Positions 4,398-27,527 of a stretch of 64,000 bases of DNA are shown one piece after another. Origin of the DNA: a virus (Duplodnaviria; Heunggongvirae; Uroviricota; Caudoviricetes); IMG/VR virus record IMGVR_UViG_3300032167_005013. One strand, given 5' to 3'. Below the pieces are notes generated by a model. It was given only the letters and a program-made list of their open reading frames with translations. It did no database searches and was not told the DNA's origin. Both the position numbers and the translations under genes were made by a program. Each line of letters starts with the position of its first letter. The stretch's first letter is position 1.

Positions 4398-4543
4398 GGT
4401 AGTGATGTTTAATTGATTACATCTTCATTTATCGCAAAGTCCGTGCCAAATTCTATCTATTAAGAAAGAATTTATCTTGTATCTTGGAGATAGTTTCCAC
4501 AGCACCCCAAATAAGGAGTGCTATGATTATAGGGTTATTCATA

Positions 4544-4867
4544 TTATTTTACTATACTATAAAGCCCGATTTTGTATTTCATTGTAATGATAACCTGTTT
4601 CAGTGCGTTTTCGATTTCTTTTTCATTTTTAAGAAAAAGCATATCCTTACCAAAGGTTTTGAAAAACGCATCTTGTATTTCTCCGTGCAGTCCGACAAGG
4701 CGGAAATAGTTATCCCTTATAGGGTATTCAAGTTTTGAACAATATATATTGGTAGAGAAAACCCTTACAAACTTTGGCGGGTCGTTTGGTTTGTCCTCTC
4801 TTGTTGCAAGCACTTCAAAGTTAGGAAAGTTTGAAAATCCTTTGTCGTAAGTAATGCGTGTTTCCAT
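4544..4867 (-). CDS. hypothetical cassette gene
   Basis: ORF with a minus-strand sigma54 box at 4903-4920. Confidence 0.7.
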   Translation of the reverse strand: METRITYDKGFSNFPNFEVLATREDKPNDPPKFVRVFSTNIYCSKLEYPIRDNYFRLVGLHGEIQDAFFKTFGKDMLFLKNEKEIENALKQVIITMKYKIGLYSIVK

Positions 4868-4938
4868 ATTCTTTGTTGTTAGTTGTTTACATCTTACTTT
4901 AATGCAAAGACCATGCCAAAGTGGATAGTTTTATATTA

Positions 4939-5280
4939 CTATCCACATATTTTGTTGGTTTGGTTTTCGCTGATAGGAGTTGCATAATCATCAGAGGTGG
5001 TGTAGTTGGTTCTGACCTCAGGAGTGCCCTCATAGTATTGTGTGATGTTATAGTCATTGACTATTTGAGTTATTTCGGTTTCCACCATATCAATACATTG
5101 AGTTGTATTCAAAAGGATATGCCTCCCAAAAATATCAATGATGTCAAGAAAGCCATTTGTATAGGCTTTTTCAAAAGGGTTATCGGTTTTAACGAATATA
5201 ACTCCGTTATTTACTTTTGTGATTTTCCACCCTTTGAAAATTGTTACCTTTGTTGTTGAAGTTGCCTTAATGAAAGCCAT
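4939..5280 (-). CDS. hypothetical cassette gene
   Basis: ORF with a minus-strand sigma54 box at 5317-5334. Confidence 0.7.
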   Translation of the reverse strand: MAFIKATSTTKVTIFKGWKITKVNNGVIFVKTDNPFEKAYTNGFLDIIDIFGRHILLNTTQCIDMVETEITQIVNDYNITQYYEGTPEVRTNYTTSDDYATPISENQTNKICG

Positions 5281-5546
5281 TGTGTTAGTTGTTTAATTGA
5301 TTACATCTTCATTTATTGCAAAGTCTGTGCCATAGATGTTATAATGAGAAAAAAATATATTATAATATAATAATATATGGTATAAAGATTTTTATATATT
5401 GTTATGGTTTGGCATAGATATTGCATAATGTAGGAATGTAGTTCTTTGAGAATAGAGTAAAAAAGTTTTTAATTTTCTATTAGAAAATTAAAGGTTTGGC
5501 ACGATATTCGCATATAGAATAGATGTAAACAACTAACAATAAAGAT

Positions 5547-6062
5547 ATGACAAACATTATTTCAGCACTTGCAAATGCAAAGGGATTTCAGTTCGTGGGA
5601 CTTACTTACGAAAATGAGGTAAAAATGAACAAGACCGGTAATCCGTATTACGGTAGAGTTACCAAGAGGGTCAGCGGTCAGATGTGTTTCAATGGAAACT
5701 ATGAAAATATGGTCAACAACCGCCTTACGAAAGAGGGTGTAGAGTTTGAGTTTGTTGCAGGCAGTCTCCCTTGGGGTCAGTGGGTCGAGGGTTGTGAGAA
5801 TAAAGTAATCGCACATAAGGGAGAGTTTTACATAAGACTTTATCCAACTCCGAACACAAAGATGAAAGTGACTTACTACCTTGATGGTGTGGAGTGTACT
5901 GACACTGACATGAAATATATCACTCCGTTTCTTCCTCAACGAAAGGAATCCGCAAAGCAGGAGAACGCAGGATTGGAGGGAGCAAAGCAGTTACACCCGC
6001 AGAACATTAAGGTCAGCAACATTAAGAAACTGACTATCGGTGGAGCGGAATACATAATGTAG
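5547..6062 (+). CDS. conserved-looking phage protein
   Basis: 171 aa; sigma54 box at 5495; KMNKTGNPYYGRV, LPWGQW, HKGEFY. Confidence 0.8.
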   Translation: MTNIISALANAKGFQFVGLTYENEVKMNKTGNPYYGRVTKRVSGQMCFNGNYENMVNNRLTKEGVEFEFVAGSLPWGQWVEGCENKVIAHKGEFYIRLYPTPNTKMKVTYYLDGVECTDTDMKYITPFLPQRKESAKQENAGLEGAKQLHPQNIKVSNIKKLTIGGAEYIM

Positions 6063-6183
6063 GTACTCAAAAGAGTATAGGGAGTTGAAAAATACTCCCT
6101 AACTTTTTAAGAGTTTTTAAAACATTGGCATACTTATTGTTATATATAAACATAAGTACATAACCGGATTAAAACCTATTGAC

Positions 6184-6516
6184 ATGAAAGAGACCCTTAC
6201 ATCAATCAGCAACATCAGCAAGAGGATAATGGAAAAGATGGGAGTTAACTCCCGAGCAACAAAAGCCTTTTGGCAAATGGGTAGTGGGGAAAAGGAGAAT
6301 GTAGTATTTTCGCTTATTGATTACAGCGATGAAGATGTTGAAAAGTATTGCCCGTCATTCATCAGCATTGACAATGAAACGCAGGTAATGACATTCTTCT
6401 ATGACGGCATTCCGTATTTCTCAAATAAATTAAGTCTTGTTGACCTCAAGAGGATACGAGCAGGCTTGCTGAAACTTGAACGAAATCGGCATAAGATTGA
6501 ACAGATATTTGACTAA
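6184..6516 (+). CDS. hypothetical cassette gene
   Basis: ORF after the box at 6126. Confidence 0.7.
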   Translation: MKETLTSISNISKRIMEKMGVNSRATKAFWQMGSGEKENVVFSLIDYSDEDVEKYCPSFISIDNETQVMTFFYDGIPYFSNKLSLVDLKRIRAGLLKLERNRHKIEQIFD

Positions 6517-6622
6517 ATGAATGGAAGTACTCAAATGAGTACTTCTTTTTTTTTATATATGATATAAGTTTGGCATTGTTTTTGCATTACATAGAAATGT
6601 AATCAAATAATACAAAACAGAT

Positions 6623-6985
6623 ATGAAAAAACAGGACAAACCTACATCAGTCGGCATCATTGAAAGCAGGAATACACATATCCCCCACACGATTTTGCAG
6701 CAAATCAAATATCCAAACCTTGTAATCTTTTTTACTTGGGGTGCAAAGGGTTTTACAATGGGGCAAAGCAATGATGAACGCAAAGAGCCTTGTTTGATGT
6801 TTAAGGTCAGTGGCCGCAAATTTAAGGGATATGTTCATATCTTTTATGATTGGTCAGACTATTATAGGGTTGAATTTGTATCAACACATAGGAATCTGAA
6901 AAAGGTCGTTAATGAAGTCTATTTTGACGAGTTGCAGTCAGTAATTGATGAATATGTTGAAAAATGCGAAGATTATGCCTTTTAA
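6623..6985 (+). CDS. hypothetical cassette gene
   Basis: ORF after the box at 6569; FKVSGRKFKGYVHIFYDWSDYY. Confidence 0.75.
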   Translation: MKKQDKPTSVGIIESRNTHIPHTILQQIKYPNLVIFFTWGAKGFTMGQSNDERKEPCLMFKVSGRKFKGYVHIFYDWSDYYRVEFVSTHRNLKKVVNEVYFDELQSVIDEYVEKCEDYAF

Positions 6986-7041
6986 TGGCATAGTCTTTGC
7001 ATATAATAGAAATGTAATATTTCTATTAACTGAAAATTATT

Positions 7042-7296
7042 ATGGCAAAGAAAAAGAGAAAGGGTTTATATAAACTCAACAAAGAAGCCAAAGTGGGAGA
7101 AACAATAGAATGCCCTATCTGTCATACCAAGTTCACTAAAAGGCAGTATTCACAAGCCTTTTGCTCTACAAGGTGCAAGGATAGATTTTGGAACTCCAAG
7201 GGAGACCGACACCGATATGTGGACTATCCCGACAATGACTTTGGCGATAGGGAAATGGATGAAATGTTCGGGGTTGCCGAATATAATGTCGAATAG
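7042..7296 (+). CDS. small Zn-finger protein
   Basis: CPIC...FCSTRC; box at 6986. Confidence 0.7.
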   Translation: MAKKKRKGLYKLNKEAKVGETIECPICHTKFTKRQYSQAFCSTRCKDRFWNSKGDRHRYVDYPDNDFGDREMDEMFGVAEYNVE

Positions 7297-7495
7297 GTTG
7301 TTTATAAAAATCAAATGCCACAAAAATGTCCTATATTTTATAGATACAAGAGGTTTTGGGCATATCGTGGGTAATTTGTCTAATAAGATGGCTATATTCC
7401 CGATTTACCATTCTGTCTATAAACATCTGTATGAAGATGTCAATGTGGCACAGAAATTGCAATAATAAAATAGAAACCAATAAAAACAAAAAGAT

Positions 7496-7636
7496 ATGCT
7501 ACTAACGATTATCATCAGTGCAATGCTGACAACATTTCCAAAAGAGGAAACACCGAAAGCAATCCGTTTCAGCAACGATATGGTGCTTGTGGAGGAAACA
7601 ACATTACCAAAGCCGTTTGTAACCAACAAAAAGTAA
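7496..7636 (+). CDS. small protein with hydrophobic N-terminus (46 aa; not in the ORF track)
   Basis: MLLTIIISAML.. directly after the box at 7445. Confidence 0.5.
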   Translation: MLLTIIISAMLTTFPKEETPKAIRFSNDMVLVEETTLPKPFVTNKK

Positions 7637-7919
7637 AATGCTATGAACGGAGGAAATTGGGGATAATAAAAATAAATGATTATGGGAAAATCATTATCAA
7701 ATCGTAATTGGGAGAAAATTACCAACGAAGAAAGGGACAGGTATCTTAATGATGAAGAAACTTGGTTTGTGGAGGAGTTTGCGGAGGGAAAACTCTATAT
7801 GAACAATGTTGATGGTTATGTCGTGCTTGACCGAGTATTTGAAACATTGTGGTCGTGGATTTAGAGTTTGGCACGGAGTTTGCAATAAAATATCGTGAAA
7901 CCAAATAACTAAATGAGGT

Positions 7920-8255
7920 ATGGTAACAAAGGAATACATTGAAAAGTTGATTGCAAAGAACAATGCACAACTTAAAACCTATAAGAGCAACTTGGAGGAG
8001 AACTATCTTCATCATTTTGAGTGGCTTGCTGAAAGGATTTTTAAGTTGGAGTGGAAAAACAAGATATTGAATGATATTCTTGTGCTGTTCAATGATGCAA
8101 ATATAAAAGCCGATGATGCAGTTAAGAGGTTAAAAGACCGATTTAGGGATGACCTTATAACAAAAAGGCTTATGCAGTCATCATCAAATCCACTTGCAAA
8201 CCTATCAAGCCTTTGGATAAATGAGTGCAAGCAGGAAATGATTGCAGAACTCTGA
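7920..8255 (+). CDS. hypothetical cassette gene
   Basis: ORF after the box at 7867. Confidence 0.7.
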   Translation: MVTKEYIEKLIAKNNAQLKTYKSNLEENYLHHFEWLAERIFKLEWKNKILNDILVLFNDANIKADDAVKRLKDRFRDDLITKRLMQSSSNPLANLSSLWINECKQEMIAEL

Positions 8256-8771
8256 CAAGTTTGGCACGGAACTTGCAATAAAATAAATCAAAAAGAAAGT
8301 ATAACCTTTTAACGGATGGAGGGTACACCAATGCACCGATAAGAGATTAAATTGAAAACTTGATTATTAGAAAATTTACGAAATAAACCAACCGAGATAT
8401 ATAGGTTTTAGAGGGTTAGCCGTTTTAGAGTATATCGCAATTTGTTCGTGATATGAACACAAGAGACCGACCATAAAGGGCATACGCAATTTATTATATT
8501 CTGGATTTTTGAAACTTAATTAGGAACCTTTTAATGCGCCCTGCCTATGGGAACAAGAGCATCACCAAGTTAGACATAGATTATTTTATTGATTGAGCAT
8601 TTTAATATAACAAGGGGTTTGTCATTGATATGTTAAGTTGGAGCGAAACCACCAAACCCCCCCAAAGAATTTAGGTTAGTTGTCTATATGTTGAGTTTTC
8701 CGTGTTATGTTGTGAAATATGGCACGGATTTTGTTATAAATGAAGATGTAAACAATTTAAAACAAGATAAC

Positions 8772-9242
8772 ATGAATAAGAATTTTGAAAATCTAACAAA
8801 GGATGAACTTCTAACACTCCGTAAGGACATTGTGTTAAATTCAATATTTATTCACGATTATGAGAATAGTTTTGGCTTTGATTCTCATAAGGTATCAGTT
8901 TTCTTTGATAGTTTTGTGGAATATATCTGCGAACTTGCTGAGGAAAATGGTGTAAAGGACTTTGAAAGGATACTTAAAGAATATGACACTATCGACAACC
9001 TTTGGTCTTGGTTTAATTGTTATGACGATTTATCGTGGATGACATTTGCCAATGGCTTTAGAATTGGGGATAAAGTTAAGTGGGAGGACTCGGGACTTGA
9101 TGACTTTGATTTCAACGAAAGAGAAAGTCAGAAAGAAAGAGTGTATAAAATTATTGGAGTATTGAACGATGAAATGTTCCTTATTTCGGATGAATATGGA
9201 GAATCCGAGGTGTTTGCTGATGAACTGATAAAAGTGGCATAG
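8772..9242 (+). CDS. hypothetical cassette gene
   Basis: Start reassigned to the ATG after the box at 8720. Confidence 0.7.
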   Translation: MNKNFENLTKDELLTLRKDIVLNSIFIHDYENSFGFDSHKVSVFFDSFVEYICELAEENGVKDFERILKEYDTIDNLWSWFNCYDDLSWMTFANGFRIGDKVKWEDSGLDDFDFNERESQKERVYKIIGVLNDEMFLISDEYGESEVFADELIKVA

Positions 9243-9281
9243 TCTTTGCATATAATAGAAATGAACTTAAATAGCAAAAAT

Positions 9282-9770
9282 ATGAATATTCAAGACATTC
9301 AGAAAACACTTTCCGATGATTTAATTTCTTGCGATGTATATGAGTGGGAAAATGGTGTTTATGTCGAAATTGAATATGGAGATTGGAAACATGACCACCT
9401 GCGATGTGATTACCTTATGAAAACAATGGGATATAGTCTTATAGAAGAAAAGGTAACAAAACAGGACGGTAGCGATTGTTATGGTTCTATTCATATCTAC
9501 GAGAAAGGTGGGTTAATGAAACTGAATGACATTCGTAATGTGTTAAGGCACGGAAAACTCTATTGGAAATTCAGTTGGGTTAAGGATTATGGCAACGGCA
9601 CAAAGTTAATTGAATATAAGTCTTTCAAGTCCGCAAGAGGAAAAAAGCATATCAGTATCTTGCAGATTGGATATAGGGTCAACGATTTTGGTGTAATATC
9701 TTGCGGTTATACCAAAGATGAGGAGCATAAAGAAATAATTTTTATATCTGACCTTGAGGGTTTGGCATAG
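9282..9770 (+). CDS. hypothetical cassette gene
   Basis: After the box at 9234; GDWKHDH and GSDCYGSIH motifs. Confidence 0.65.
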   Translation: MNIQDIQKTLSDDLISCDVYEWENGVYVEIEYGDWKHDHLRCDYLMKTMGYSLIEEKVTKQDGSDCYGSIHIYEKGGLMKLNDIRNVLRHGKLYWKFSWVKDYGNGTKLIEYKSFKSARGKKHISILQIGYRVNDFGVISCGYTKDEEHKEIIFISDLEGLA

Positions 9771-9813
9771 TCTTTGCAATAAGATAAGATGTAAATCAAT
9801 AAAAACATTTGTT

Positions 9814-10005
9814 ATGACACATACGAGAACAACCGACAATGGTATCCGTTTCAAGACAACGACTGAGTTTGAAACATGGTGGAGTGAATATGATATGGCA
9901 GTTGCTGAAACGCACCTTGCCAACTATGATAAAATTATTGTCGATGAATATGGCTGTCCTATTGACAATGAGTATGACCTTGCTGAGATAGAGGAATATC
10001 TTTAA
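9814..10005 (+). CDS. small acidic protein
   Basis: ATG after the box at 9761. Confidence 0.6.
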   Translation: MTHTRTTDNGIRFKTTTEFETWWSEYDMAVAETHLANYDKIIVDEYGCPIDNEYDLAEIEEYL

Positions 10006-10166
10006 AGTAAATATCCCTGCCCTGAGAAGCATATGCAGAGGTAGAATAAGCGGTTGACCGTAATTAAGTCCGTGTAAAGTAACTCAAAGGAGCGGAGGGC
10101 AGGGTTTTTTAATACTTTGGCATAGTCTTTGCAGTATAGTAAAGTACAATCAAATACCGACACGAT

Positions 10167-10700
10167 ATGGAGACAACAAAAAACACAATGGCAAAAATGC
10201 AGACCACCAAACTTGGCAAAGAGGTTTGGTTGCTTGGTAAGGATAATGATGATATGAATCTTTATCTTGTTAAGGCATCATGGGATTGTGGTTGGTATTG
10301 GGGCTTTGGATATGTGCAGTCATACAAGAGGGGTGACATTGAAACGCACACACACATTGATAGCAGTTTCATGGGGGTGCAGAAAGTGTGGGACATTGAC
10401 AAAAATAAGTTTGTTGAGACCGACTATATCCACAACATCTACAATGCACCTATGTTTGCTGAAACGACATTCTCAGAAGAAGAGGGTTGGCAGTTGACAG
10501 AATTGTTCAAGCAGTTCTACAAGTTTAAAGAGGTTGCAGGAATTCTCCATAGAGGTGGAGCGGGAATCACCACTCTGTGCGACTATCTCAAGATTGACTA
10601 TCCCGAAAGAGAGGCACGATACAAGGAAATCAATGAGGTTATCCTCCCGCAGATATTCGAGAAGATATATTCAATTCTTACCCCGGATAAAAATGAATAA
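10167..10700 (+). CDS. conserved-looking phage protein
   Basis: ASWDCGWYWGFGY motif; box at 10116. Confidence 0.75.
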   Translation: METTKNTMAKMQTTKLGKEVWLLGKDNDDMNLYLVKASWDCGWYWGFGYVQSYKRGDIETHTHIDSSFMGVQKVWDIDKNKFVETDYIHNIYNAPMFAETTFSEEEGWQLTELFKQFYKFKEVAGILHRGGAGITTLCDYLKIDYPEREARYKEINEVILPQIFEKIYSILTPDKNE

Positions 10701-10784
10701 GGTACTCGAAAGAGTACCTTTCAGAAACGACTTTGGCATATTTATTGCATATATAACAACTGAATAACTAAAACAAACATCACT

Positions 10785-11723
10785 ATGGCAAGCAAAAACA
10801 CAAATCTTCATTCAGCAAAGAAAGCGAAAAATGATGAATTCTATACTCAACTTACTGACATTGAGAAAGAAATGAGACATTATAAGGATTTCTTTAGAGG
10901 AAAGGTTGTGTATTGCAACTGCGATGATGCAAGGGAATCCAATTTCTTCAAGTATTTCTCCCTTAACTTTGAACATCTTGGACTGAAGAAACTCATTACC
11001 ACAGGTTATAAGGAAAGTGGAAAGGGTGTTGTCCTTATCTATGAGGGAGACAAGAATGGCAATAGAATCGTTGAAGATTCAGAGATTATCGTAAGAGAAC
11101 TTGAGGGCAACGGAGACTTCCGTTCAGCAGAGTGTATCGAGTTCCTTAAAGAATCTGATGTTGTTGTTACAAATCCGCCATTCAGTCTATTCCGTGAGTA
11201 TGTTGCTCAACTTATGGAGTATGGAAAGAAATTCATTATTATAGGTAATGGCAATGCTGTAACCTATAAAGAGATTTTCCCTTATATCAAGAACAACGAA
11301 CTTTGGTTGGGGGCAAGTAAAGGTATTGGTGGTAAGTTTACATTTATTGTTCCCGAAAGTTATGAGGGTAAATTTGTTTCTGTTGAAAATGGTGTTAGGA
11401 TTGGACAAGTGAATAATGCTTGTTGGTTTACTAACATTCCCCATACAAAAAGAAATACTCCACTTGATTTGTATCGTAGGTACTCAAAAGAGGACTATCC
11501 TAAGTACGATAATTATAATGCGATTGATAGTACGACATCTGAAATTCCTATGGACTATGACGGAGTTATTGGTGTTCCAATCACATTCCTTGACAAATAT
11601 TGCCCTACTCAGTTTGAAATAATTGGGCTTGATAGATATGTTGAGGATAATCCTCGTTATGGACATCGTTTCCATATAAATGGGAAAGAAACTTATGCAA
11701 GAATTTTAATTCGCAGAAGATAA
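10785..11723 (+). CDS. adenine-specific DNA methyltransferase, EcoRI family
   Basis: AKNDEFYT, VVYCNCDD, GDFRSAEC, VTNPPFSLFREY, WFTN, YDNYNAI, GVPITFLDKY. Confidence 0.9.
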   Translation: MASKNTNLHSAKKAKNDEFYTQLTDIEKEMRHYKDFFRGKVVYCNCDDARESNFFKYFSLNFEHLGLKKLITTGYKESGKGVVLIYEGDKNGNRIVEDSEIIVRELEGNGDFRSAECIEFLKESDVVVTNPPFSLFREYVAQLMEYGKKFIIIGNGNAVTYKEIFPYIKNNELWLGASKGIGGKFTFIVPESYEGKFVSVENGVRIGQVNNACWFTNIPHTKRNTPLDLYRRYSKEDYPKYDNYNAIDSTTSEIPMDYDGVIGVPITFLDKYCPTQFEIIGLDRYVEDNPRYGHRFHINGKETYARILIRRR

Positions 11724-11823: not shown

Positions 11824-11908
11824 TATTAGACACTTAAGAATCTTTTAAGGTTTAATGGGTTTGGCATGGACTTTGCATCATGTTGTAATGTAACCAATCA
11901 ACATTGAT

Positions 11909-12211
11909 ATGAACAAACAAATCGAATACTATTCAGTTTGCAGTTGTGGGGCAATCACATTGTTTTTCACTGACGGCACATCAAATTCCTGCAAGAGAAA
12001 AAACCTTAAGAAGTTTGGAATAAGCCTTAAGGGTATAAAGAAACAAAAGGAGAATACTTGGTGTTGCAATCATTGCGTAAATCACTATGGCATAGATATA
12101 TGTTCATGTGGCAGTGGAGAGGAGTATGAGAAGTGTTGTGGTACTCCAATGGAAACACTTGGTGTTCAGTACGATGGTTTTAGTCAAATCCTTAAAAACT
12201 TTGCACGATGA
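11909..12211 (+). CDS. Cys-rich protein with a SEC-C-like motif
   Basis: CSCGSGEEYEKCC; box at 11860. Confidence 0.65.
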   Translation: MNKQIEYYSVCSCGAITLFFTDGTSNSCKRKNLKKFGISLKGIKKQKENTWCCNHCVNHYGIDICSCGSGEEYEKCCGTPMETLGVQYDGFSQILKNFAR

Positions 12212-12615
12212 TTAGTGATAAAATCGAAGTTATCAATACATTAAGAAACAGACTTGCAATCGCAGAAGATGGGTTGAAAGAAGAAATTTTTTCACTCATT
12301 GACAAGGTTGTTAAGATGCAGGTTATTGAGAGGGTTGGCAAGTTTATGTGCATTATGAAATTCAGCGAGATAAGTGGTAAGATATGGGCGGCTGAATACT
12401 ATATATGGGAGCATAATGCCGAAATGCTTAAAAAGAAATTAAAAGATAAGAGTGGCATTGAGTGCTATGACTACATAATGAATTTGCCAAAATCCAAAAC
12501 GAGGATGGGTAATTATGAAATCAAATACTATGTGTCGAATTGGCTTGGTAGGTACGAACTGAAATATCCTGTGAATAATGAATACATTGACAAACTTATT
12601 TCTGAACTGAAATAG
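12208..12615 (+). CDS. hypothetical protein
   Basis: ATGA-coupled to the upstream gene. Confidence 0.65.
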   Translation: MISDKIEVINTLRNRLAIAEDGLKEEIFSLIDKVVKMQVIERVGKFMCIMKFSEISGKIWAAEYYIWEHNAEMLKKKLKDKSGIECYDYIMNLPKSKTRMGNYEIKYYVSNWLGRYELKYPVNNEYIDKLISELK

Positions 12616-12668
12616 GTTTGGCACAGACTTTGCAGTAAGATAGAACTGAAACATAAAAGGAAATAACC

Positions 12669-18748: not shown

Positions 18749-18810
18749 AGGTACTCAAAAGAGTACATTATGGCATACTATTTGCAGTAATATCAGTAAG
18801 AAACCAATAA

Positions 18811-19119
18811 ATGACATACAATACTATGGAAAAGAAAATGTTTGCACTTACTTATTGTTATGAGGGAGTGGATGATAATGTCCCTTATGCTTGTACCATC
18901 GCAGTATCAGAAGATATTGAAAAACTCCGTGCTGAAATGGAGAAATGTATTGAAGAAGATACAAGAGAGCCTAATGAGGAAGATGGAGAAGATGAATGGC
19001 AGGATGATATGAATTATCAAGTTTTTAGAAAATATGGCGATGATGTGGTGCTCCAACACAAAAAGAACATCAATCTTTACACACATTATAAAATTCATGA
19101 AGTTTCCGTCTTGGAATAA
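18811..19119 (+). CDS. hypothetical cassette gene
   Basis: Box at 18769. Confidence 0.65.
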   Translation: MTYNTMEKKMFALTYCYEGVDDNVPYACTIAVSEDIEKLRAEMEKCIEEDTREPNEEDGEDEWQDDMNYQVFRKYGDDVVLQHKKNINLYTHYKIHEVSVLE

Positions 19120-19178
19120 TAAGTTTGGCATGGTATTTGCAGTGTAGTTAAATTGTAAACCAATTAAAACAAGAAACT

Positions 19179-19439
19179 ATGTTGAGGATTAACGAGCCAC
19201 ACATGACAATCGGTGTTCAAGGTTGGGCAAAGGTTGATGGGAAGTGGAAGTGCATTGAGAAGTTTACTGAAAGGAAATTCGGTAACTATGGACTTACGGC
19301 TTTAAGGACAAAACTCATATTGAGAAATTCAAAGGTTGAGTTTACCAAGATATATTTGAAAACTCCAATCAGTGTCCCATTTTTGCAGTGGTATGACAAG
19401 AACGGAAAAGAAACAAAACATCCGCTTATGGATGATTAA
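19179..19439 (+). CDS. hypothetical cassette gene
   Basis: Box at 19124. Confidence 0.65.
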   Translation: MLRINEPHMTIGVQGWAKVDGKWKCIEKFTERKFGNYGLTALRTKLILRNSKVEFTKIYLKTPISVPFLQWYDKNGKETKHPLMDD

Positions 19440-19922
19440 AAGTAATATTGTGATGTGGTAGGGAATTGCACCCTATACTCCAACTAATGCACGATATTAT
19501 TTATTATTGATAGTGAGTAGGAGTCCTATTTACCCCCTTTGGATATGTTGGATAAAGCCAATGCGGGCAATAGGCAAACAGCAAACCGAATTTGTTGATA
19601 AGAGACAGACTTTTGTTTATAGGGTTGTTGCCGAATTTAATTGACAAATCAAAAGGATGGGATATTTGATGGTCTGCCATGACAATTCATCATAGCACCA
19701 ATCTCCAAGTGGTTAGTCCACTACGGCTATGTACTTATAATCGTTTCGGGATTTTACGAGGTACACCGCTTGGCAGTCCATCACTTATTTTAGAAAGTTA
19801 TTCATCATTCTGTGTTTAATTGGTTGGGAGTGTAAGTTTTCTACGGATTTGCACTCCTTTTTTATTACTTTGGCATAGTAATTGCAATAACATAGAATAG
19901 AAATCAATTTAAAAACACAGAT

Positions 19923-20429
19923 ATGGCAAAAAAGAAAAGAACTGCATTCCAAGAGGAAACCATTAAGATGTTTCTCGAAAGTGCATCTTGGAATGATTAC
20001 CCAAAGGAGTATTATAAGAATGTGACCATTGAAAGATTTTGGACTGACTATATACCCGATGGAAGTACCACAATCTACACAACTCCCGACCATATTGACC
20101 ACGATGAATGTGGTAATTTTTATAAGTGGGGAACTACCGAAGAACTATGCGATGATTTCAACGCAGTTCGTGATATGCTTTGGCAGAGTGGTATTCTTGA
20201 AGAAGTCTATGATGAACATCAAGAACTTGATTATGACCAAACACCCACGCCGGAGGATTTCGTTTATGAATGTTGTCAGCATTGCGAACATGAAAACGAG
20301 TTCATAATGGAAATGAGGTATCAGCGATGCAAGAAGTGTGGCAGACTTATCAAGCCTTGTGCGGTTTGTGACCATGATAAGGTAAATTGTGAAAATTGCC
20401 CGCTTGGAAAAGACCTTAAAAACCAATAA
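19923..20429 (+). CDS. protein with a Cys-rich C-terminus
   Basis: CQHC, CKKCG, PCAVC, CENCP; box at 19869. Confidence 0.7.
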   Translation: MAKKKRTAFQEETIKMFLESASWNDYPKEYYKNVTIERFWTDYIPDGSTTIYTTPDHIDHDECGNFYKWGTTEELCDDFNAVRDMLWQSGILEEVYDEHQELDYDQTPTPEDFVYECCQHCEHENEFIMEMRYQRCKKCGRLIKPCAVCDHDKVNCENCPLGKDLKNQ

Positions 20430-20433: not shown

Positions 20434-20772
20434 ATGAGTAAGAAAATTTACACACACTTGGGTTATTACTCCGACCTTAATGACATTCTTCGCCTTTGCG
20501 ATAAACTATCCGATTATATTGTTGAGGATATGCTGAAAGGTAATGGATGTTTCCATGAAACAGATGATTGCGAACTTGATGAGAATTCTCTCGCTTGTTA
20601 TTTCCCAACTTTTGTAAAAGTGAATGGTAAGGAGTATGCAGTCATAAAAGATATTGATTGGATACCCGAGGAACTTTTCAAACTTGATGCAGATAGTGAT
20701 GCCGATAACGATTGGTATGACCAAAACCCTGCATATATAGATGTCTATGAACTTAAAGAAATGGAGGACTAA
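20434..20772 (+). CDS. acidic protein, paralog A
   Basis: KIYTHLGYYSDL...DADSDADNDWYDQNPAYIDVY. Confidence 0.75.
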   Translation: MSKKIYTHLGYYSDLNDILRLCDKLSDYIVEDMLKGNGCFHETDDCELDENSLACYFPTFVKVNGKEYAVIKDIDWIPEELFKLDADSDADNDWYDQNPAYIDVYELKEMED

Positions 20773-20775: not shown

Positions 20776-20943
20776 ATGCCAAAATATAGAATTCCCGTTC
20801 GTAATGTTGAATATGGATTTATTGATGTAGTTGCAGACAATATTGAAGATGCAAAAGAAAAAGTAGATTGTTTTGACGGAGATTACTATGTAAACAAAAA
20901 TTTTGTTGATATAGTTGCTGAAATTGAAACACTTGAAGATTAG
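20776..20943 (+). CDS. small acidic protein (55 aa)
   Basis: MPKYRIPVRNVEYGFIDVVADNIEDAKEKV.. Confidence 0.55.
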   Translation: MPKYRIPVRNVEYGFIDVVADNIEDAKEKVDCFDGDYYVNKNFVDIVAEIETLED

Positions 20944-20993
20944 TTTGGTACGAACTTTGCAATATATAGGAATGTAAACAAATACAGAATACT

Positions 20994-21320
20994 ATGGAAA
21001 AGATTTATAAGCATCTTGGTTATTATTCCAATCTTGAAGATATTCAAAAACTTTATGATAAGACTGATGAATATGTCGTTGAGGAAATGTTACAGGGGAG
21101 GGGTTGTTTCAATGTAGCCGACTATGAAGAGCATACCGAACATTATCTTAAATGTTGCGATGCAGGATTCGTTGATATCAATAACACGAGATATGCAGTG
21201 GTAAGAGATTACGATTGGGACATATCGGACTTGGACGACCTTGACGCAGATAGTGATGAAGATAACGACCTTTACGACCGCAGCCCTTCATATATTGATG
21301 TGTATTTAGTAAAGGAATAA
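20994..21320 (+). CDS. acidic protein, paralog B
   Basis: KIYKHLGYYSNL...DADSDEDNDLYDRSPSYIDVY. Confidence 0.75.
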   Translation: MEKIYKHLGYYSNLEDIQKLYDKTDEYVVEEMLQGRGCFNVADYEEHTEHYLKCCDAGFVDINNTRYAVVRDYDWDISDLDDLDADSDEDNDLYDRSPSYIDVYLVKE

Positions 21321-21368
21321 TAGTTTGGCACGGACTTTGCAATATAATTGAGTTATAAAACAAAAACA

Positions 21369-21938
21369 ATGGAAACATTAAAAAATGACTTTCTCCTTTA
21401 TATCTTGGAGTACGCATTTTGCGATGATACTCAAATTTCTATTATCAATGAGTATCTTGACAATCATGGCGAAAGCAGGATTTATCAGAATGATTCCGAT
21501 GGTCTTGAAGATATGCTTGAATGTACAGAGAAATCCGAGATTGTTCGTGCAATATCATTTGGTCAGTATTCTTGGACTGATAGTTATGTCAAATTCAATG
21601 GCTATGGAAACATAGAATCGTTTAACGCCTTGTGGGGTTCTGATAGCGTATGGATTGAGGATATGATTGCTTGGTTGACTGAGGGGGATAATTCGCCTCG
21701 CCTTGACCTTGTATATACAATACTTGATGCAGACGAAGTTGCTGACATTCAGCTCCATTTTGTTGAAGAACTTATGGAAATTCTCGACAATGAGGATGAA
21801 AGTAATATTAATAAATGGATTGAAGAAAAATCAATAGATTCAGAACTCATTTGCAGAGAGAATTGGAACGACTTGATTGCCAATTACAAGGAATGGAAAA
21901 AAGTTGATAATTGGCTAAAAGAGAATGGCAATGAGTAA
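21369..21938 (+). CDS. acidic phage protein
   Basis: DSYVKFNGYGNIES; box at 21324. Confidence 0.7.
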   Translation: METLKNDFLLYILEYAFCDDTQISIINEYLDNHGESRIYQNDSDGLEDMLECTEKSEIVRAISFGQYSWTDSYVKFNGYGNIESFNALWGSDSVWIEDMIAWLTEGDNSPRLDLVYTILDADEVADIQLHFVEELMEILDNEDESNINKWIEEKSIDSELICRENWNDLIANYKEWKKVDNWLKENGNE

Positions 21939-22086
21939 GAAAAGAGATTTTGAAACCGATTATGTAAAGGCGGTAAAAAAGATAATGCGTGAAGAAGTCG
22001 GACTTACACCTACAAAGGTGGAGAAAAGCAAAAAGGCTTATAACCGACAGAAAAGCAAACGCATTGATGACAACGACATTTCATAG
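21931..22086 (+). CDS. small basic protein, possibly ArfA-like
   Basis: MSKKRDFETDYVKAVKKIMREEVGLTPTKVEKSKKAYNRQKSKRIDDNDIS. Confidence 0.5.
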   Translation: MSKKRDFETDYVKAVKKIMREEVGLTPTKVEKSKKAYNRQKSKRIDDNDIS

Positions 22087-22317: not shown

Positions 22318-22428
22318 AGTGTTTTATATTGGTTGGAATTGGGGAGATTGCTAAAATTTCCCCTTTTCTTTTTAACACTTTGGCACAGATGTTGCAGTAT
22401 GTAGGAATGTAATATAAACAATTTTGAT

Positions 22429-22644
22429 ATGGAAAAGATTGCTAAGGATTTGGCGTTTTGCCCTATGCTGAGGGTGGTAATCCCAAAGGGTACAACAAAC
22501 GGATGGTCTGAAGAAGAATTTGCTGAACTGACCGCAAGAGAAAAATTGCAGAGTTGGACAAAATCTGAAATTATTGATTGGGTTATGGAAAACCTTGAAG
22601 ATATTTTCGAAAGCCCGGAAACATTCGATAAGGATTATGACTAA
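22429..22644 (+). CDS. hypothetical cassette gene
   Basis: Box at 22379. Confidence 0.6.
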   Translation: MEKIAKDLAFCPMLRVVIPKGTTNGWSEEEFAELTAREKLQSWTKSEIIDWVMENLEDIFESPETFDKDYD

Positions 22645-22671
22645 AATATAAACCAATTAAAAACCAAGAAC

Positions 22672-23010
22672 ATGAGAAAGTTTGTAAATTTCTATGATAA
22701 ACTCAGTGCAATACACCAAGAACTTGTTCTTGAGATTGTAGAATGTTTCAAGGAAAATAATGTTTCAAAAATCAGCATTGCTGATGATGATTGCCCTCTT
22801 ATTCTGAATATGTTTGATGAATGGGGTGAGAGTGGTATCAATGAAACCATTACCGACATTGAGGTCGAAACTTATGAGAGCGGAATGGTGGTAATCAAAC
22901 TTTATAAGAATAATTCAGAAACATTCTTTGAACTTGATGATTGTACTGACGGCAACGCACTTCTCTATGTATATGAATATGTTTTTAGACATTTTTATGG
23001 AGAAGAATAG
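22672..23010 (+). CDS. acidic hypothetical protein
   Basis: Conserved leader aaccaattaaaaac. Confidence 0.65.
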   Translation: MRKFVNFYDKLSAIHQELVLEIVECFKENNVSKISIADDDCPLILNMFDEWGESGINETITDIEVETYESGMVVIKLYKNNSETFFELDDCTDGNALLYVYEYVFRHFYGEE

Positions 23011-23082
23011 TTTAAGAAAAAACTGACTTTGGCACGGAACTTGCAATAAGATAGGATGTAAACCAATAAAAACACAGAGAAT

Positions 23083-23570
23083 ATGAGCAATTTTAGACAG
23101 ACACTTTTCGAGAGAGGATGTTACACAGAAGAAGATTACAAGGACTATTGCCTTGATAATGACTTGGAGTACGATGAAACCGATGATAGTAAATACTATG
23201 ATTGGGTTGCAAGACAAGAGGAATGGGATTTTGACGATATGCTTGACAACTGCAAGTATTCAAAATACAAGAACTATTCCGTACTTGTTGAGGTAGTGTG
23301 GGAACATGGAGAGGCAGGTTTGAGCATGACCAAGCGGTTTTCGACAGTTTCGAGGATGCGATTTATGCTTGCATTGGCAGGTCGTGTGAGATTGACAAGG
23401 TTGAGAGAATTGGCAATAGGATTGAGGTTGTTGCAATCCACCACGATGGAAGAAACTACCATACACTTTATTTCCTTACTCCTTGCGGAGAATATAGATT
23501 TGAAAAGAATGGTCATGTTTCTCCGAGAAACAGAGAAAACATTGTACCACTTGACAAGTATGTATGGTAA
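23083..23570 (+). pseudogene. frameshifted phage gene (GxWxG...HHDGxN type)
   Basis: The 5' frame (MSNFRQ..VLVE) continues more plausibly in the 23298-23570 frame (GTWRGR..HHDGRN). One extra G at ~23292 restores a single ORF. Confidence 0.55.
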
Positions 23571-23622
23571 TTAACAAAGGTACTCGAAAGAGTACCTATA
23601 TAAAAACAATCAAATAAAAATC

Positions 23623-23976
23623 ATGAACGCACTCTACAAAAATTTCAAGGATATTTCAGAGCAGGCAAAGTTGTTGGAAACACAAAGACTCAATGCTTTC
23701 AAGCAGATAATCAAAGAGGCAAGCCAAGACACTTTATATGGTTGTGTCAGGTTTGATAACGAAGATGATGATGACCTTAACGCACATCAGTTTTATGACA
23801 ACCAACTCGAAACCTATCAGACTATTATAGGTATAAGGGTAAGTCAGAACAACAACATTGAAATTTGTGTCTATGAAGATTTTGACGGGGATTTCCATAA
23901 TAAACGAAATTGGTTTAATCCTTTCCTTTACGGCACTTTTGATATGGATAATCTTCTTTCTTTAATGTTCGATTAA
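23623..23976 (+). CDS. hypothetical protein
   Basis: 117 aa ORF after the palindrome at 23580. Confidence 0.65.
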   Translation: MNALYKNFKDISEQAKLLETQRLNAFKQIIKEASQDTLYGCVRFDNEDDDDLNAHQFYDNQLETYQTIIGIRVSQNNNIEICVYEDFDGDFHNKRNWFNPFLYGTFDMDNLLSLMFD

Positions 23977-24033
23977 ACCACTTTGGCACGAAAGTTGCTA
24001 TAATAATAATTGTAAACCAAATAAAAGAAGCTT

Positions 24034-24813
24034 ATGACAAATGAATTTATTACCATGATTTTGGATAGTGCGAGGAACATTGCACATGACAGAAATGGAT
24101 TCTATGAGACACTTAAAAAGAATCTTGAGGGAATGTACGATGATTTCGTTGACGAAGCAAAGAAAAAACAGAAAGAATATGTATATAATCGTATCCTTTC
24201 ATACGATTATCTTCCAACAACCACACTCCTCGACACTTATGTTCTTGGTATTATCGAAACCAAATACGATTTGTTTCAAGGCGTTGATTGGAATGTAATG
24301 GAAGTCCTGTCAGAAATTACAGAGAACGCAACAAACTACTTCGTGGGTAAGTTCGGCCTTAATGAAGTTGAAAAGGCGGTATTCTATCAGTGGCTTGGCA
24401 ATGCAGATGATTATACCAACGAATATACCATCATTGATAATCTTGGATTCCCTCATGGGGACAAGTCGCATCCCGACCTTTATAGGATGTATAAGGAATG
24501 TTTCGGTAAGGATTTCAAGGTAGAGGGAGATGATGATGTAACAGATGATTTCGTTATCACCAATTACCCAAACAGACGCACTGAACTTACCGCAACAATC
24601 AATACCAACTTCGCAATGCTTTTTGCAGTCCTCAACACACATACATATAATGGGGACATGGGAGTTACCATTGAAAGTTGTTCAAGTCCATTGGCTTTGA
24701 AAGAACTTGGATTCTCCGATAGTGAATGTGCGACAATCGCAAAACTTAAGATTGGAGAAAGTTGTATGTCGGAAGACTATGGCAATGGAGTGGTTGTCGT
24801 AAGAATGGCATAA
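24034..24813 (+). CDS. hypothetical cassette gene
   Basis: 259 aa; box at 23982. Confidence 0.75.
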   Translation: MTNEFITMILDSARNIAHDRNGFYETLKKNLEGMYDDFVDEAKKKQKEYVYNRILSYDYLPTTTLLDTYVLGIIETKYDLFQGVDWNVMEVLSEITENATNYFVGKFGLNEVEKAVFYQWLGNADDYTNEYTIIDNLGFPHGDKSHPDLYRMYKECFGKDFKVEGDDDVTDDFVITNYPNRRTELTATINTNFAMLFAVLNTHTYNGDMGVTIESCSSPLALKELGFSDSECATIAKLKIGESCMSEDYGNGVVVVRMA

Positions 24814-24891: not shown

Positions 24892-24923
24892 TTTGGTAAT
24901 TAAAATACTAATTCCTATATTTG
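24892..24923 (+). promoter_or_regulatory. Bacteroidota housekeeping-type promoter (TTTG-N20-TAnnTTTG); others end at 29889, 31547, 33135, 35251
   Basis: -33 TTTG and -7 TATATTTG/TATCTTTG with 20-21 nt spacing. Confidence 0.7.
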
Positions 24924-24943
24924 CAATATAAATATAACATATT

Positions 24944-25438
24944 ATGACGCAAGAAAATTGCATAGTATTAACCGCTTATAATAAAGGATATCGAGTTGAT
25001 GAATTTGGTAATGTTTGGTTTAATGGTAGGCAACGCAAACTAACGGCAGGAGGTTCCAATCCAAATAGAAAATACTACAAATTTTGCATAAGATTTGATA
25101 ATGGTAAGCCTAAAAATGTAAAAGTTCATAAACTTCAGGCTTATCAAAAATATGGTGAAAAAATGTTTGAAGAAGGTATTGTTGTTCGACATTTGAATGA
25201 TGACCCTCTTGACAATTCTTATGAAAATATAGCAATTGGAACAATATCAGATAATATGTTTGATATGCCCGAAGAAAAACGGAAAAAACTTGCTAAGCAC
25301 GCAACATCATTTCTAATAAAATATGATGCTGAAAAAATAAAAGAATTTTATGAAGAATGCCGTTCATATAAAAAGACTATGGAATATTTTGGTATTCCAT
25401 CACGAGGAACGCTTCATCATATAATTCATAATAGATAA
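24944..25438 (+). CDS. HNH homing endonuclease
   Basis: VKVHKLQAY..VVRHLNDDPLDNSYENIAIGTISDN. Confidence 0.8.
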   Translation: MTQENCIVLTAYNKGYRVDEFGNVWFNGRQRKLTAGGSNPNRKYYKFCIRFDNGKPKNVKVHKLQAYQKYGEKMFEEGIVVRHLNDDPLDNSYENIAIGTISDNMFDMPEEKRKKLAKHATSFLIKYDAEKIKEFYEECRSYKKTMEYFGIPSRGTLHHIIHNR

Positions 25439-25442
25439 AAGC

Positions 25443-25517
25443 GGTCGGTTGGTGTAGAAGTTAGCACGATGCCCTTTCACGGCATAGACAGCGGAGCGTT
25501 ACCGCTACCGACTACCA
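25443..25517 (+). tRNA. tRNA-Glu(TTC)
   Basis: ggtcggt/accgact acceptor, atgcc-ctTTCac-ggcat, CCA encoded; atypical T loop AGCGTTA. Confidence 0.85.
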
Positions 25518-25660
25518 AATAGAGATTCATCTTACATCTGTAATAAGAAGCCCGTGAGGGTGCATAGTGTTTTTAATTTGGTTTTAATCGTGGGTCGGGG
25601 TTATTTTCTCCGACCTTTTTCTTTATTATTTCCCCCTTTATTGTTATTTTAATAAAAAAC

Positions 25661-25936
25661 ATGAAGAAGAGATTTGTAAATGGAACTGATGTTTATGTTC
25701 ACTCCTATAAAGATTATACTGCGGTATTATATTTGAATGAGGAGAATATCATCAATTTTGCTATCGTAAATCCGGAAAACATAACGATTGCAACGGGAGA
25801 TATATTTGATGATAAACACCCTAAAGGCTTGCCAAATACTTCCTATTATAGGAAGAAAATTCAGATGGAACTTGAAGAACTTCTTGAAAATCAAGTTTTC
25901 AATCTTGAAAAAGAAATTACAAATGAGGGAGAATAA
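25661..25936 (+). CDS. hypothetical protein
   Basis: 91 aa ORF. Confidence 0.55.
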   Translation: MKKRFVNGTDVYVHSYKDYTAVLYLNEENIINFAIVNPENITIATGDIFDDKHPKGLPNTSYYRKKIQMELEELLENQVFNLEKEITNEGE

Positions 25937-26011
25937 ATTTCCCTCATTTTTTATTTGTGGCACGGACTTTGCAGTATGGTAGAATTGTAAACCAATATAA
26001 AAACGAATAAT

Positions 26012-26296
26012 ATGGAAAAATCTAAAATGACTTGGGAAGAATACAAGAACTTCAAAGAAGATGGGGACACATCTTACAATGAGTTTGATAAATGCCATGA
26101 TAAAGGCAATGACATTCTGTCAGATATTAGAGAACTCCTTGAAATGGCACAGAATTACAATGTAAATGAAAGTGCTATTGATTGCCTTGATGTGGCACTC
26201 GAAGAAATGCAGAAATTCTGTAATAATATGATGGATTGCAAATGTAATCATTTTGAGGCTTACAAGAAAAGACTTGGCACGATTGTTGAAGTATAA
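26012..26296 (+). CDS. hypothetical cassette gene
   Basis: Box at 25957. Confidence 0.65.
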   Translation: MEKSKMTWEEYKNFKEDGDTSYNEFDKCHDKGNDILSDIRELLEMAQNYNVNESAIDCLDVALEEMQKFCNNMMDCKCNHFEAYKKRLGTIVEV

Positions 26297-26328
26297 TCGA
26301 ATTGTAGAAACCAATTAAAAACAAATAT

Positions 26329-26727
26329 ATGAAACATAAGATTTTATCAGTCTATAATGACTATTACGAAATCAAAGAATTCCTTTTCAAGTACGACTTC
26401 ATATCAGAGGAACAATTCAATGATGATGAATATGACCTATTGGTATGGTTGGAAGGAGATTGTGATAGGATGGATTTTGATGGTAACGAAATCTTTTTTT
26501 CCCATTTCCATTCCGATTATGTATGGGATGGTTGTCAGGTCGTTATCTGTACTGCTGATGGTCGTGATGAACTTGACGAAATCCTTGAATTTTATGAGGG
26601 TGAGAGTTGGGTTATGGTCGATGATGATATAGACATTGATGCGTTTCTTGAAAGCGATGAAGATAAGGTTTTGTATCGTGGTGGGGTAGGACCTGTCTAT
26701 ACGGTATATTGTCGTAAAACCGAATAA
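26329..26727 (+). CDS. acidic hypothetical protein
   Basis: Box at 26274. Confidence 0.7.
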   Translation: MKHKILSVYNDYYEIKEFLFKYDFISEEQFNDDEYDLLVWLEGDCDRMDFDGNEIFFSHFHSDYVWDGCQVVICTADGRDELDEILEFYEGESWVMVDDDIDIDAFLESDEDKVLYRGGVGPVYTVYCRKTE

Positions 26728-26784
26728 GTTTGGCACGGAACTTGCAGTATAAGAAAATTGTAAACTAATAAAAACATTTCAACT

Positions 26785-27468
26785 ATGTATCTTAAATATC
26801 AAGCGAAAGCACTTTACAGATTGATTGGTAATCGTGTCATTTCTTTTGACCATAAGTCTTATGATGATGCTGAGGATATACCATGTATCATTCACGATGG
26901 CAGAAGAATAAATGTATATTCAGTACAATTTATACACAATGGAGCTGCACTTTGTTGTGAACTTGACGATAAGATTTTGTGCGAGGTAACAATCAAGTTG
27001 GTTAATAATGATTGTGAGATTAGTGATGTTGAATTTGATAGGATTCTCAATATCAAATGTCTTGACCAACTTTTCCACGATATGTACTATGAGACAGATG
27101 AAAGTGGGGATATTGGGGATTATGAACTTGATTTTCTCGAACTTTATCCGGAAAACCTTGAACAATATGAGGGTCTTTCCAAGAACGAAATGCTTGCCGA
27201 CATTGCAAACACAATGAGAAACAATGCCACATCATCTTGGGCGTTTCCTGCCAATACATTCGTGCACCTTAACCTTTGGAATACTCCTACCCTAACAGAC
27301 CTTAGATTCCTCTTCATTAGAGAGTCATCAAGAGTGGATGGAGAAACAATAATTGAACTCTATTCTATTGACGATGAAAGGGATGATGAACAATATACAG
27401 ATAATCTTAAGGATTTTTCTGTTGAGGAAATAAGAACAATATATGCAATTTTCAAGAAGAATTCATAA
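26785..27468 (+). CDS. acidic hypothetical protein
   Basis: Box at 26729. Confidence 0.7.
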   Translation: MYLKYQAKALYRLIGNRVISFDHKSYDDAEDIPCIIHDGRRINVYSVQFIHNGAALCCELDDKILCEVTIKLVNNDCEISDVEFDRILNIKCLDQLFHDMYYETDESGDIGDYELDFLELYPENLEQYEGLSKNEMLADIANTMRNNATSSWAFPANTFVHLNLWNTPTLTDLRFLFIRESSRVDGETIIELYSIDDERDDEQYTDNLKDFSVEEIRTIYAIFKKNS

Positions 27469-27527
27469 GTTTGGCATAGTCCTTGCAATATAGGACTATG
27501 TTTTTAACCAATTAAAAAACCAATAAC

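Follow-up and report, generated by a model that had tools for sequence, protein, structure and literature searches.

The subject of this report is a block of small genes between 4.4 and 27.5 kb of a 64,000-nt stretch (hereafter the window) of the IMG/VR virus record IMGVR_UViG_3300032167_005013, and the motifs of the sigma-54 (RpoN) -24/-12 promoter class that stand before these genes. An ATPase has to open the sigma-54 holoenzyme before it can transcribe; transcription is then expected to start about 12 nt past the GC of the -12 element, and the sites of its activators, the bacterial enhancer-binding proteins (bEBPs), typically lie 70-150 bp upstream. Phages can redirect the host RNA polymerase with sigma factors, such as gp55/gp33 of T4 and gp28 of SPO1. 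In Flavobacterium psychrophilum, a sigma-54 motif (SM4) precedes groESL, dnaK, grpE-dnaJ, htpG, clpB and lon, and also gliding genes (PMC9723704), and a survey across Bacteroidota found chaperone genes enriched behind predicted sigma-54 promoters, with grpE and groES of Bacteroides thetaiotaomicron being sigma-54-dependent (PMC12316311). Small ORFans of T4-type phages are flanked by PeSL units, a repeated early promoter plus stem-loop, copies of which recombine, shuffling genes and producing mini-circles (PMC2839356). A review of transcription in jumbo phages never mentions sigma-54 (PMC7824862), and in the literature that we searched for a phage gene class on sigma-54 promoters, no description was found.

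The -24/-12 motif and its promoter class

The window contains 36 exact matches to TGGCAY-N5-TTGC where 0.20 is expected (mean of 100 dinucleotide shuffles, maximum 3), and 33 of the 36 lie within 4434-27486; the motif that a first-pass annotation, made from the letters alone, had placed before the small genes of this block is thus real. Three of the array copies are on the minus strand (4448, 4918 and 5332) and 30 on the plus strand. Relaxing one letter finds two TGGTAY sites (18183 and 20946), and these together with the 33 exact array copies make up the 35 sites referred to below as strict. The -12 element is variant at five array sites (TTCGC at 5497; TTGT at 6126, 8720 and 16137; TTGA at 26275), and a weight matrix built from the sites gives 52 matches of at least 10 bits in the whole 80.75-kb record versus 0-2 in shuffles. 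In all, the array has about 40 sites; its genes number about 49 and take up 80% of the block. Some three-quarters of the genes have a site of their own and the remainder sit in two- or three-gene units, so that from the initial picture of about 40 single-gene cassettes the number of sites survives, while about a quarter of the genes depart from the one-gene arrangement. All array sites are co-oriented with their genes, and the three leftward units and rightward remainder had been described correctly, the divergence point near 5.35 kb being the gap at 5333-5409. At 33 of the 35 strict sites the first open reading frame (ORF) starts 26-42 nt past the C of TTGC, mostly 33-42, which agrees with the distance of 40-60 bp given at first pass if one counts from the start of the motif; start codons so placed leave a plausible leader of 15-30 nt. 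At 9235 this spacing fits only the second in-frame ATG, and no ORF begins at this distance from the strict sites 5410 and 8262. Several sites share letters with the stop codon that ends the gene before them, an example being TGGCATAG at 9235 and 17633.

The logo of the 35 strict sites holds 29.5 bits in positions -2 to +18, reading TT-TGGCAY-RG-N3-TTGC-A-r-TA, and only 7.3 bits in +19 to +35. All 35 have the GG and GC dinucleotides, exactly 10 bp apart, and conservation extends to positions that had not been searched for: G at +7 (31 of 35), A at +15 (33 of 35) and TT at -2/-1. The G and the A match the sigma-54 consensus of the literature, TGGCAC-N5-TTGCW (cited in PMC12316311), and the information sits in the -24/-12 blocks. 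The extended consensus, G after TGGCAC and A/T after TTGC, is kept as well in the two relatives introduced below, G005 and G004, where core and downstream information divide as 27.3/6.7 and 26.4/6.2 bits. Mean pairwise identity between copies in the window is 72% in the core (about 22 nt), 31% upstream and 39% downstream, and there is just one pair of paralogous cassette proteins; a conserved core between near-random flanks, with a single paralogous pair, argues that the core is kept by selection and not by recent duplication.

An alternative parsing would make the same letters a promoter of the sigma-70 family, for use by a phage sigma factor or by modified host sigmaA, with TTGGCA as a -35-like element and TAnnnT 16-17 nt downstream as a -10. 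A sigma-70 scan does flag several TTGGCA-N17-TAAGAT/TAGAAT combinations at array sites, and G005 and G004 encode two sigma-70-family factors each, one of those in G004 lying inside its array, 130-200 nt downstream of two sites. However, this parsing puts the invariant TTGC in a spacer, where it would have no role, and the supposed -10 region is the least conserved part of the element, with 6-7 bits versus 26-30 in the -24/-12 block in all three phages and thus no conserved -10 hexamer. Sigma-70-like sites are not enriched overall (81 versus 76.7 expected). In the Bacteroidota sigmaA promoter, about 19 bp separate a -33 TTTG from a -7 TAnnTTTG; the array sites lack both a properly placed TA and a conserved TTG 19 nt upstream. 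Promoters of this type (TTTG-N17-21-TAnnTTTG) do occur elsewhere in the phage, 24 versus 3.4 expected, preceding for example tRNA genes and most leftward genes of the right arm, and this would make the sigma-54-type block a separate expression class. A sigma-70-family origin of the array sites is, in our view, very unlikely. The core of the RpoN reading proposed at first pass is supported by the consensus, the information profile, orientation, start spacing, the cores of the relatives and the rejection of alternatives: every test that could be run on sequence, except that for an enhancer, agrees with a sigma-54-type -24/-12 class.

The phage, its relatives and the factor that reads the sites

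The window belongs to an 80,750-bp record with 127-bp inverted ends and a CheckV completeness of 23%. The record encodes tRNA genes, a TROVE/Ro60-like protein, a CCA-adding-type nucleotidyltransferase, an RNA ligase and a Thg1-like enzyme, and contains no structural genes; it is a fragment of a very large phage of about 350 kb, an estimate that fits the contigs of 360-390 kb on which proteins of this clade are often found. Most of the phage ORFs have no recognisable family, and the array genes are nearly all of unknown function. Bacteroidota is the probable phylum of the host, judging from the sigmaA-type promoters, the absence of Shine-Dalgarno (SD) sequences and the BACON domains, which occur in large proteins of G005. 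A TnpB-type insertion sequence (62590-63789) has 92% and 85% DNA identity to two contigs binned as Bacilli metagenome-assembled genomes. The contig inspected has 26% GC, no SD and Bacteroidota-type promoters and is probably misbinned, and a Bacilli host was dropped on these grounds; neither of the two genomes has the array motif or a sigma-54 domain, and the B. thetaiotaomicron control carries Sigma54_DBD.

No close relative of the array was found by megablast against 50,697 phage records, nor by exact promoter words or single-protein scans of IMG/VR. A degenerate promoter pattern retrieved 39 viral stretches, and two of these records are true relatives. G005 (IMGVR_UViG_3300021399_000099; 216,910 bp, 61% complete) has about 20 proteins in common with the record, at 35-60% identity, and G004 (IMGVR_UViG_3300028048_000039; 344,580 bp, 93% complete) has 20, with the TROVE protein at 57%. 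There are 45 exact sites in G005, 40 of them in 28-58 kb, with three leftward units followed by rightward ones and a GTAACCAA leader; G004 has about 17 sites in 188-209 kb, several with TTTGT, TTTGA or TTCGC at -12. Of the cassette genes of the window, four recur in G004 and two in G005, and the genes in common retain a site whose spacer letters differ; the other cassette genes compared have no counterpart in either. The comparison among relatives suggested at first pass thus reveals content that turns over under a promoter architecture that is kept. Gain and loss of cassettes by recombination at the repeats, also suggested then, finds indirect support in this turnover and is weakened by a repeat of only about 22 nt, near-random flanks and the single paralogue pair.

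Sites that persist while cassette content becomes nearly wholly different could also mean that they are not mainly promoters: they could be decoys that drain the host stress response of sigma-54 holoenzyme, for which some 40 high-affinity predicted sites per genome copy would be a titrating dose, or they could be sites of cassette exchange, since T4-type PeSL cassettes recombine at repeated promoters (PMC2839356). But co-orientation with genes and a fixed start distance of 26-42 nt are properties of promoters that neither role needs; moreover, the repeat is short with unrelated flanks, and both effects could be by-products of real promoters. We regard this explanation as extremely improbable.

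The search for rpoN and bEBP genes that the first-pass annotation had called for was run on the record and both relatives and detected none. Sigma54_DBD, the full-length rpoN model TIGR02395, the GAFTGA motif, a true enhancer-binding Sigma54_activat (PF00158) protein and a multisubunit or T7-type RNA polymerase (including PF00623, PF00562 and PF00940) are absent from all three. Several candidates were set aside. In the relatives, the Sigma54_activat model matched only the two AAA domains of an 878-aa ClpC/ClpB-type chaperone, not a bEBP; a conserved 376-aa AAA+ protein was rejected as a bEBP, its predicted fold being Bcs1/YjoB-like (predicted local distance difference test score, 82.5; best PDB E about 5e-12); a weak TIGR02395 match in G004 is a member of a small paralogous family unrelated to sigma-54; and a faint Rpb1_3 match in an 815-aa G005 protein (E 0.038) is unsupported by the PDB or by RNA polymerase families. 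Judged by its gene content, the clade depends on the host core polymerase, with several promoter classes in use. Because neither the fragment nor the 93%-complete relative has a detectable sigma-54, bEBP or RNA polymerase, the balance for the sigma factor once described as host or phage-encoded shifts towards the host.

We consider it probable, though well short of certain, that the array is read by host sigma-54 on the host polymerase with an AAA+ activator, probably a host bEBP. The 4.4-27.5-kb region would then be a hyperplastic accessory-gene block of a Bacteroidota phage of about 350 kb, divided into some 40 compact transcription units, each with a sigma-54-class core (GG at -24, GC at -12), about 11 nt of AT-rich sequence where sigma-54 would set the start site, a leader of about 25-30 nt that is rich in A and has no SD sequence, and one to three small genes, and in some cases closed by a conserved hairpin. 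Host core RNA polymerase with host RpoN would bind each site as a closed complex, to be opened by the activator, for which the proteostasis/heat-shock sigma-54 regulon of Bacteroidota would be the obvious source; since the units share no upstream activator site and have no room for one, this protein would work in solution or from a distance. The remaining phage genes would be served by Bacteroidota sigmaA-type promoters and, in the relatives, also by phage sigma-70-family factors.

Several observations weigh against this scheme. No upstream element is shared in the interval -160 to -3 (the best k-mer occurs at 5 of 40 sites), and the TGTCA-N3-TGACA boxes described in other phages are absent upstream of the array sites. 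Many promoters abut or overlap the preceding stop codon, and the units leave almost no non-coding space. Hence, an enhancer layout of the classical kind is lacking, which leaves a gap in the scheme, and activation would have to come from solution, from a few distant sites or from an unrecognised phage factor. The -12 variants TTTGT, TTTGA and TTCGC of G004 are looser than in typical sigma-54 promoters, and no known feature of sigma-54 promoters corresponds to the conserved element (GTAACCAA) that follows the core. Finally, the record is 23% complete and most of its ORFs are familyless, so a phage factor could sit in the remainder.

Such a factor is the basis of another explanation, in which the sites are of the sigma-54 class and the decisive component is phage-encoded: a divergent sigma-54-like protein, a non-canonical activator or an activator-independence protein, made from sigmaA promoters or injected, with the array as a phage-timed class. 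In its favour are, besides the incompleteness of the record, the absence of an activator site shared by the units, as expected of an activator that does not bind enhancers, and the conservation of the array in three phages whose other signals differ. The option is also kept alive by a preprint on Htm, an AAA+ protein of a T4-like phage that is bEBP-like without GAFTGA or a DNA-binding domain and is proposed to act on sigma-54 polymerase (bioRxiv 10.64898/2026.10.06.757011). Set against it is the nearly complete G004, which lacks Sigma54_DBD, GAFTGA and a true PF00158 protein and has no TIGR02395 match above noise; the only PF00158 hits belong to the ClpC/ClpB-type chaperone, and the 376-aa AAA+ protein folds like Bcs1/YjoB and not like a bEBP. 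We hold a phage-encoded factor to be doubtful. Its more specific form, in which a new type of phage factor (a non-bEBP activator or an activator-independence protein) turns on sigma-54 promoters that have no enhancers, seems unlikely to us; if true, the phage would have a private orthogonal transcription channel on the host polymerase, and the sigma-54 stress response of the host would possibly be silenced by titration.

Leaders, hairpins and other features of the array

The core is followed by about 11 nt of AT-rich sequence, then by a loosely conserved (A/T)TGTAAACCAATTAAAAC at +12 to +30, and then by ATG; the shared leader seen at first pass exists, though it is loose. The 20 nt before start codons are 53% A, and an SD-like 4-mer precedes 2 of 49 array genes versus 11% of random windows; A-rich leaders of this kind, without SD, are what SD-less translation in Bacteroidota looks like. 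Before genes 22672 and 26329, where the core site is absent or degenerate, the leader is retained, which suggests a role after transcription start. At the predicted 5' end, ATG-TAA or TTG-TAA stands at +12/+13 after TTGC in 18 of 35 units, and GTG-TAA in 8 of 40 in G005; a start-stop mini-ORF in the leader was considered and dropped, NTG-TAA being too inconsistent at these frequencies. In G004, the array genes (188-209 kb) have strong SD sequences (AAGGAGGT), and an SD-like word precedes just 13% of the larger ORFs across that genome; the array SD looks like a translation signal specific to this class of genes, in a host poor in SD. A Firmicute host for G004, as the array SD might imply, was rejected in view of the low genome-wide SD use and enriched Bacteroidota promoters. 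Many G005 sites have, some 10-45 nt upstream, a bipartite box (GGGGTATATTAAA ... TTAAGCC) in both orientations, at unit junctions; it is absent from this window. Two unrelated viral contigs (G019 and G030) have tandem or head-to-head rows of 9-11 sigma-54-type sites with a period of about 26 bp, an arrangement that differs from the one-per-gene array.

The hairpin GTACTC-N4-GAGTAC occurs in 11 copies versus 0.2 expected; every copy lies in the rightward block, most of them where a gene ends, and a close variant has 3 copies in the G005 array. The stem sequence itself is conserved, which an ordinary terminator does not need. Behind the strong site at 8262, the stretch 8277-8718 (about 440 nt) has no ORF of more than 20 codons and may be a non-coding RNA; a long hairpin (8699-8728) closes it, overlapping the next variant promoter, and it has no match in G004 or G005. 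The ORF-free stretch 15900-16105, after gene 15570-15899, contains a tRNA-like T-arm (GGTTCGAATCC); the hairpin at its end (16075-16104) and the hairpin 8699-8728 have matching loops. Within the array, the gene for an HNH homing-type endonuclease (24944-25438) has a sigmaA promoter to itself and precedes tRNA-Glu (25443-25517); this segment (24892-25517) looks like a later insertion. A near-identical 33-nt Bacteroidota sigmaA promoter, TTTGTTAGTTTGGCATAATATTTGTATATTTGCA, recurs 5-7 times in the record; it embeds TGGCAT-N5-TTTGT, which resembles a weak -24/-12 site, and sigma-54 holoenzyme could in principle compete there with sigmaA. In both relatives, the genes for the ClpC/ClpB-type chaperone and the Bcs1/YjoB-like AAA+ protein lie about 20 kb from the arrays, phage proteostasis genes in a lineage that seemingly uses the proteostasis sigma factor of its host.

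Table 1. Coordinates of the sigma-54-type sites, the genes behind them and other features in the window and in the two relatives
Feature	Position	Strand	Genes or content	Score or basis
Sigma-54-type site	4434-4448	-	4053-4397 (114 aa)	31.8 bits; motif, ORF spacing
Sigma-54-type site	4904-4918	-	4544-4867 (107 aa)	motif, ORF spacing, matrix
Sigma-54-type site	5318-5332	-	4939-5280 (113 aa)	motif, ORF spacing, matrix
AT-rich divergence region	5333-5409		between leftward and rightward units	
Sigma-54-type site	5410-5424	+	no ORF behind; site 5497 follows 87 nt later	
Variant site, TTCGC	5497-5511	+	5547-6062 (171 aa)	
Variant site, TTGT	6126-6140	+	6184-6516 (110 aa)	
Site	6571-6585	+	6623-6985 (120 aa)	motif, ORF spacing
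Site	6986-7000	+	7042-7296 (84 aa)	motif, ORF spacing
Site	7446-7460	+	7496-7636, 7676-7864	motif, ORF spacing
Site	7869-7883	+	7920-8255 (111 aa)	motif, ORF spacing
Strong site	8262-8276	+	ORF-free stretch 8277-8718	32.4 bits
Variant site, TTTGT	8720-8734	+	probably from in-frame ATG 8772 to 9242	standard leader
Site containing upstream stop codon (TGGCATAG)	9235-9249	+	9261/9282-9770	
Site	9763-9777	+	9814-10005 (63 aa)	motif, ORF spacing
Site	10118-10132	+	10167-10700 (177 aa)	motif, ORF spacing
Site	10734-10748	+	10785-11723, EcoRI-family adenine methyltransferase (312 aa)	
Site	11862-11876	+	11909-12211, 12208-12615	motif, ORF spacing
Site	12619-12633	+	12669-13772, GmrSD_N + HNH nuclease (367 aa)	
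Site	13838-13852	+	13881-14213 (110 aa)	motif, ORF spacing
Site	14185-14199	+	14234-14557 (107 aa)	homologues in G004 and G005 also behind a site
Site	14569-14583	+	14621-15100 (159 aa)	motif, ORF spacing
Site	15127-15141	+	15182-15511 (109 aa)	motif, ORF spacing
Site	15518-15532	+	15570-15899 and ORF-free 15900-16105 with tRNA-like element	
Variant site, TTGT	16137-16151	+	16191-16364, 16370-16543	
Top-scoring site	16546-16560	+	16599-16916 (105 aa)	35.8 bits
Site	17110-17124	+	17161-17640 (159 aa)	motif, ORF spacing
Site overlapping upstream stop codon	17633-17647	+	17681-18157 (158 aa)	
TGGTAT site	18183-18197	+	18239-18748 (169 aa)	
Site	18771-18785	+	18811-19119 (102 aa)	motif, ORF spacing
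Site	19126-19140	+	19179-19439 (86 aa)	motif, ORF spacing
Site	19871-19885	+	19923-20429, 20434-20772, 20776-20943	
TGGTAC site	20946-20960	+	20994-21320 (paralogue of 20434-20772)	
Site	21326-21340	+	21369-21938, 21925-22086	motif, ORF spacing
Site	22381-22395	+	22429-22644, 22672-23010	second gene: leader kept, no core site
Site	23030-23044	+	23083-23574, 23623-23976	motif, ORF spacing
Site	23984-23998	+	24034-24813 (259 aa)	motif, ORF spacing
Bacteroidota sigmaA-type promoter inside array (contrast)	24892-24925	+	before HNH endonuclease 24944-25438	TTTG-N19-TATATTTG
Site	25958-25972	+	26012-26296 (94 aa)	motif, ORF spacing
Degenerate site, TTGA	26275-26289	+	before 26329-26727	10.7 bits; standard leader
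Site	26731-26745	+	26785-27468 (227 aa)	motif, ORF spacing
Final array site	27472-27486	+	27528-28088 (186 aa)	motif, ORF spacing
Isolated strong site outside array	61465-61479	-	start codon 39 nt downstream	31.1 bits
Further exact site outside array	35795	+		
Further exact site outside array	38340	-		
Hairpin GTACTC-N4-GAGTAC	6527, 10702, 15106, 16117, 18751, 23580, 24828, 28864, 31079, 31839, 32339			
TTTGTTAGTTTGGCATAATATTTGTATATTTGCA sigmaA promoter	43159, 47921, 51752, 59236	-	further copies outside window	
ClpC/ClpB-type chaperone	G005 5106-7742; G004 236.6-239.3 kb			
Bcs1/YjoB-like AAA+ protein	G005 10519-11649; G004 228645-229703			

Comparison with described systems

With bacterial RpoN promoters such as glnAp2 and pspA, the array sites have in common GG and GC 10 bp apart within full TGGCAC and TTGC blocks, the G after TGGCAC, the A/T after TTGC and a location immediately before genes. 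They differ in being in a phage, in about 40 copies, one per small gene, without upstream activator sites, often overlapping the end of the previous gene and with a conserved downstream element. The chaperone sigma-54 regulon of Bacteroidota (PMC9723704, PMC12316311) has the same core promoter type, probably in the same host phylum, and would be a plausible source of both the holoenzyme and an activator responding to proteotoxic stress, but the phage array genes are not chaperone genes and the likeness is known for the core only. If the heat-shock regulon of the host supplies the activator, some 50 accessory genes would be tied to the stress that infection causes; if the phage supplies it, a new way of activating sigma-54 awaits discovery. 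Short and portable, the promoters are conserved in a clade of gut or rumen phages of about 350 kb, and they could serve as tightly gated promoters in Bacteroidota genetics.

Among phage systems, PeSL (PMC2839356) resembles the array in its dense runs of small, non-essential ORFans, which have a strong repeated promoter apiece and in many cases a stem-loop, and in the turnover of content with the cassette kept; PeSL promoters, however, are sigma-70-like and early, whereas those of the array are of the sigma-54 type, with a repeat of only about 22 nt. The systems built on phage sigma factors (T4 gp55/gp33, SPO1 gp28) are alike in having no phage polymerase and in directing the host core through separate promoter classes, but there the phage supplies the sigma factor, while the array class matches an alternative sigma of the host that needs ATP-driven activation. 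The known routes of takeover are sigma-70-type promoters, phage sigma factors and phage polymerases; a sigma-54 class, an odd choice given a holoenzyme that is silent until an ATPase opens it, would, if true, be a fourth.

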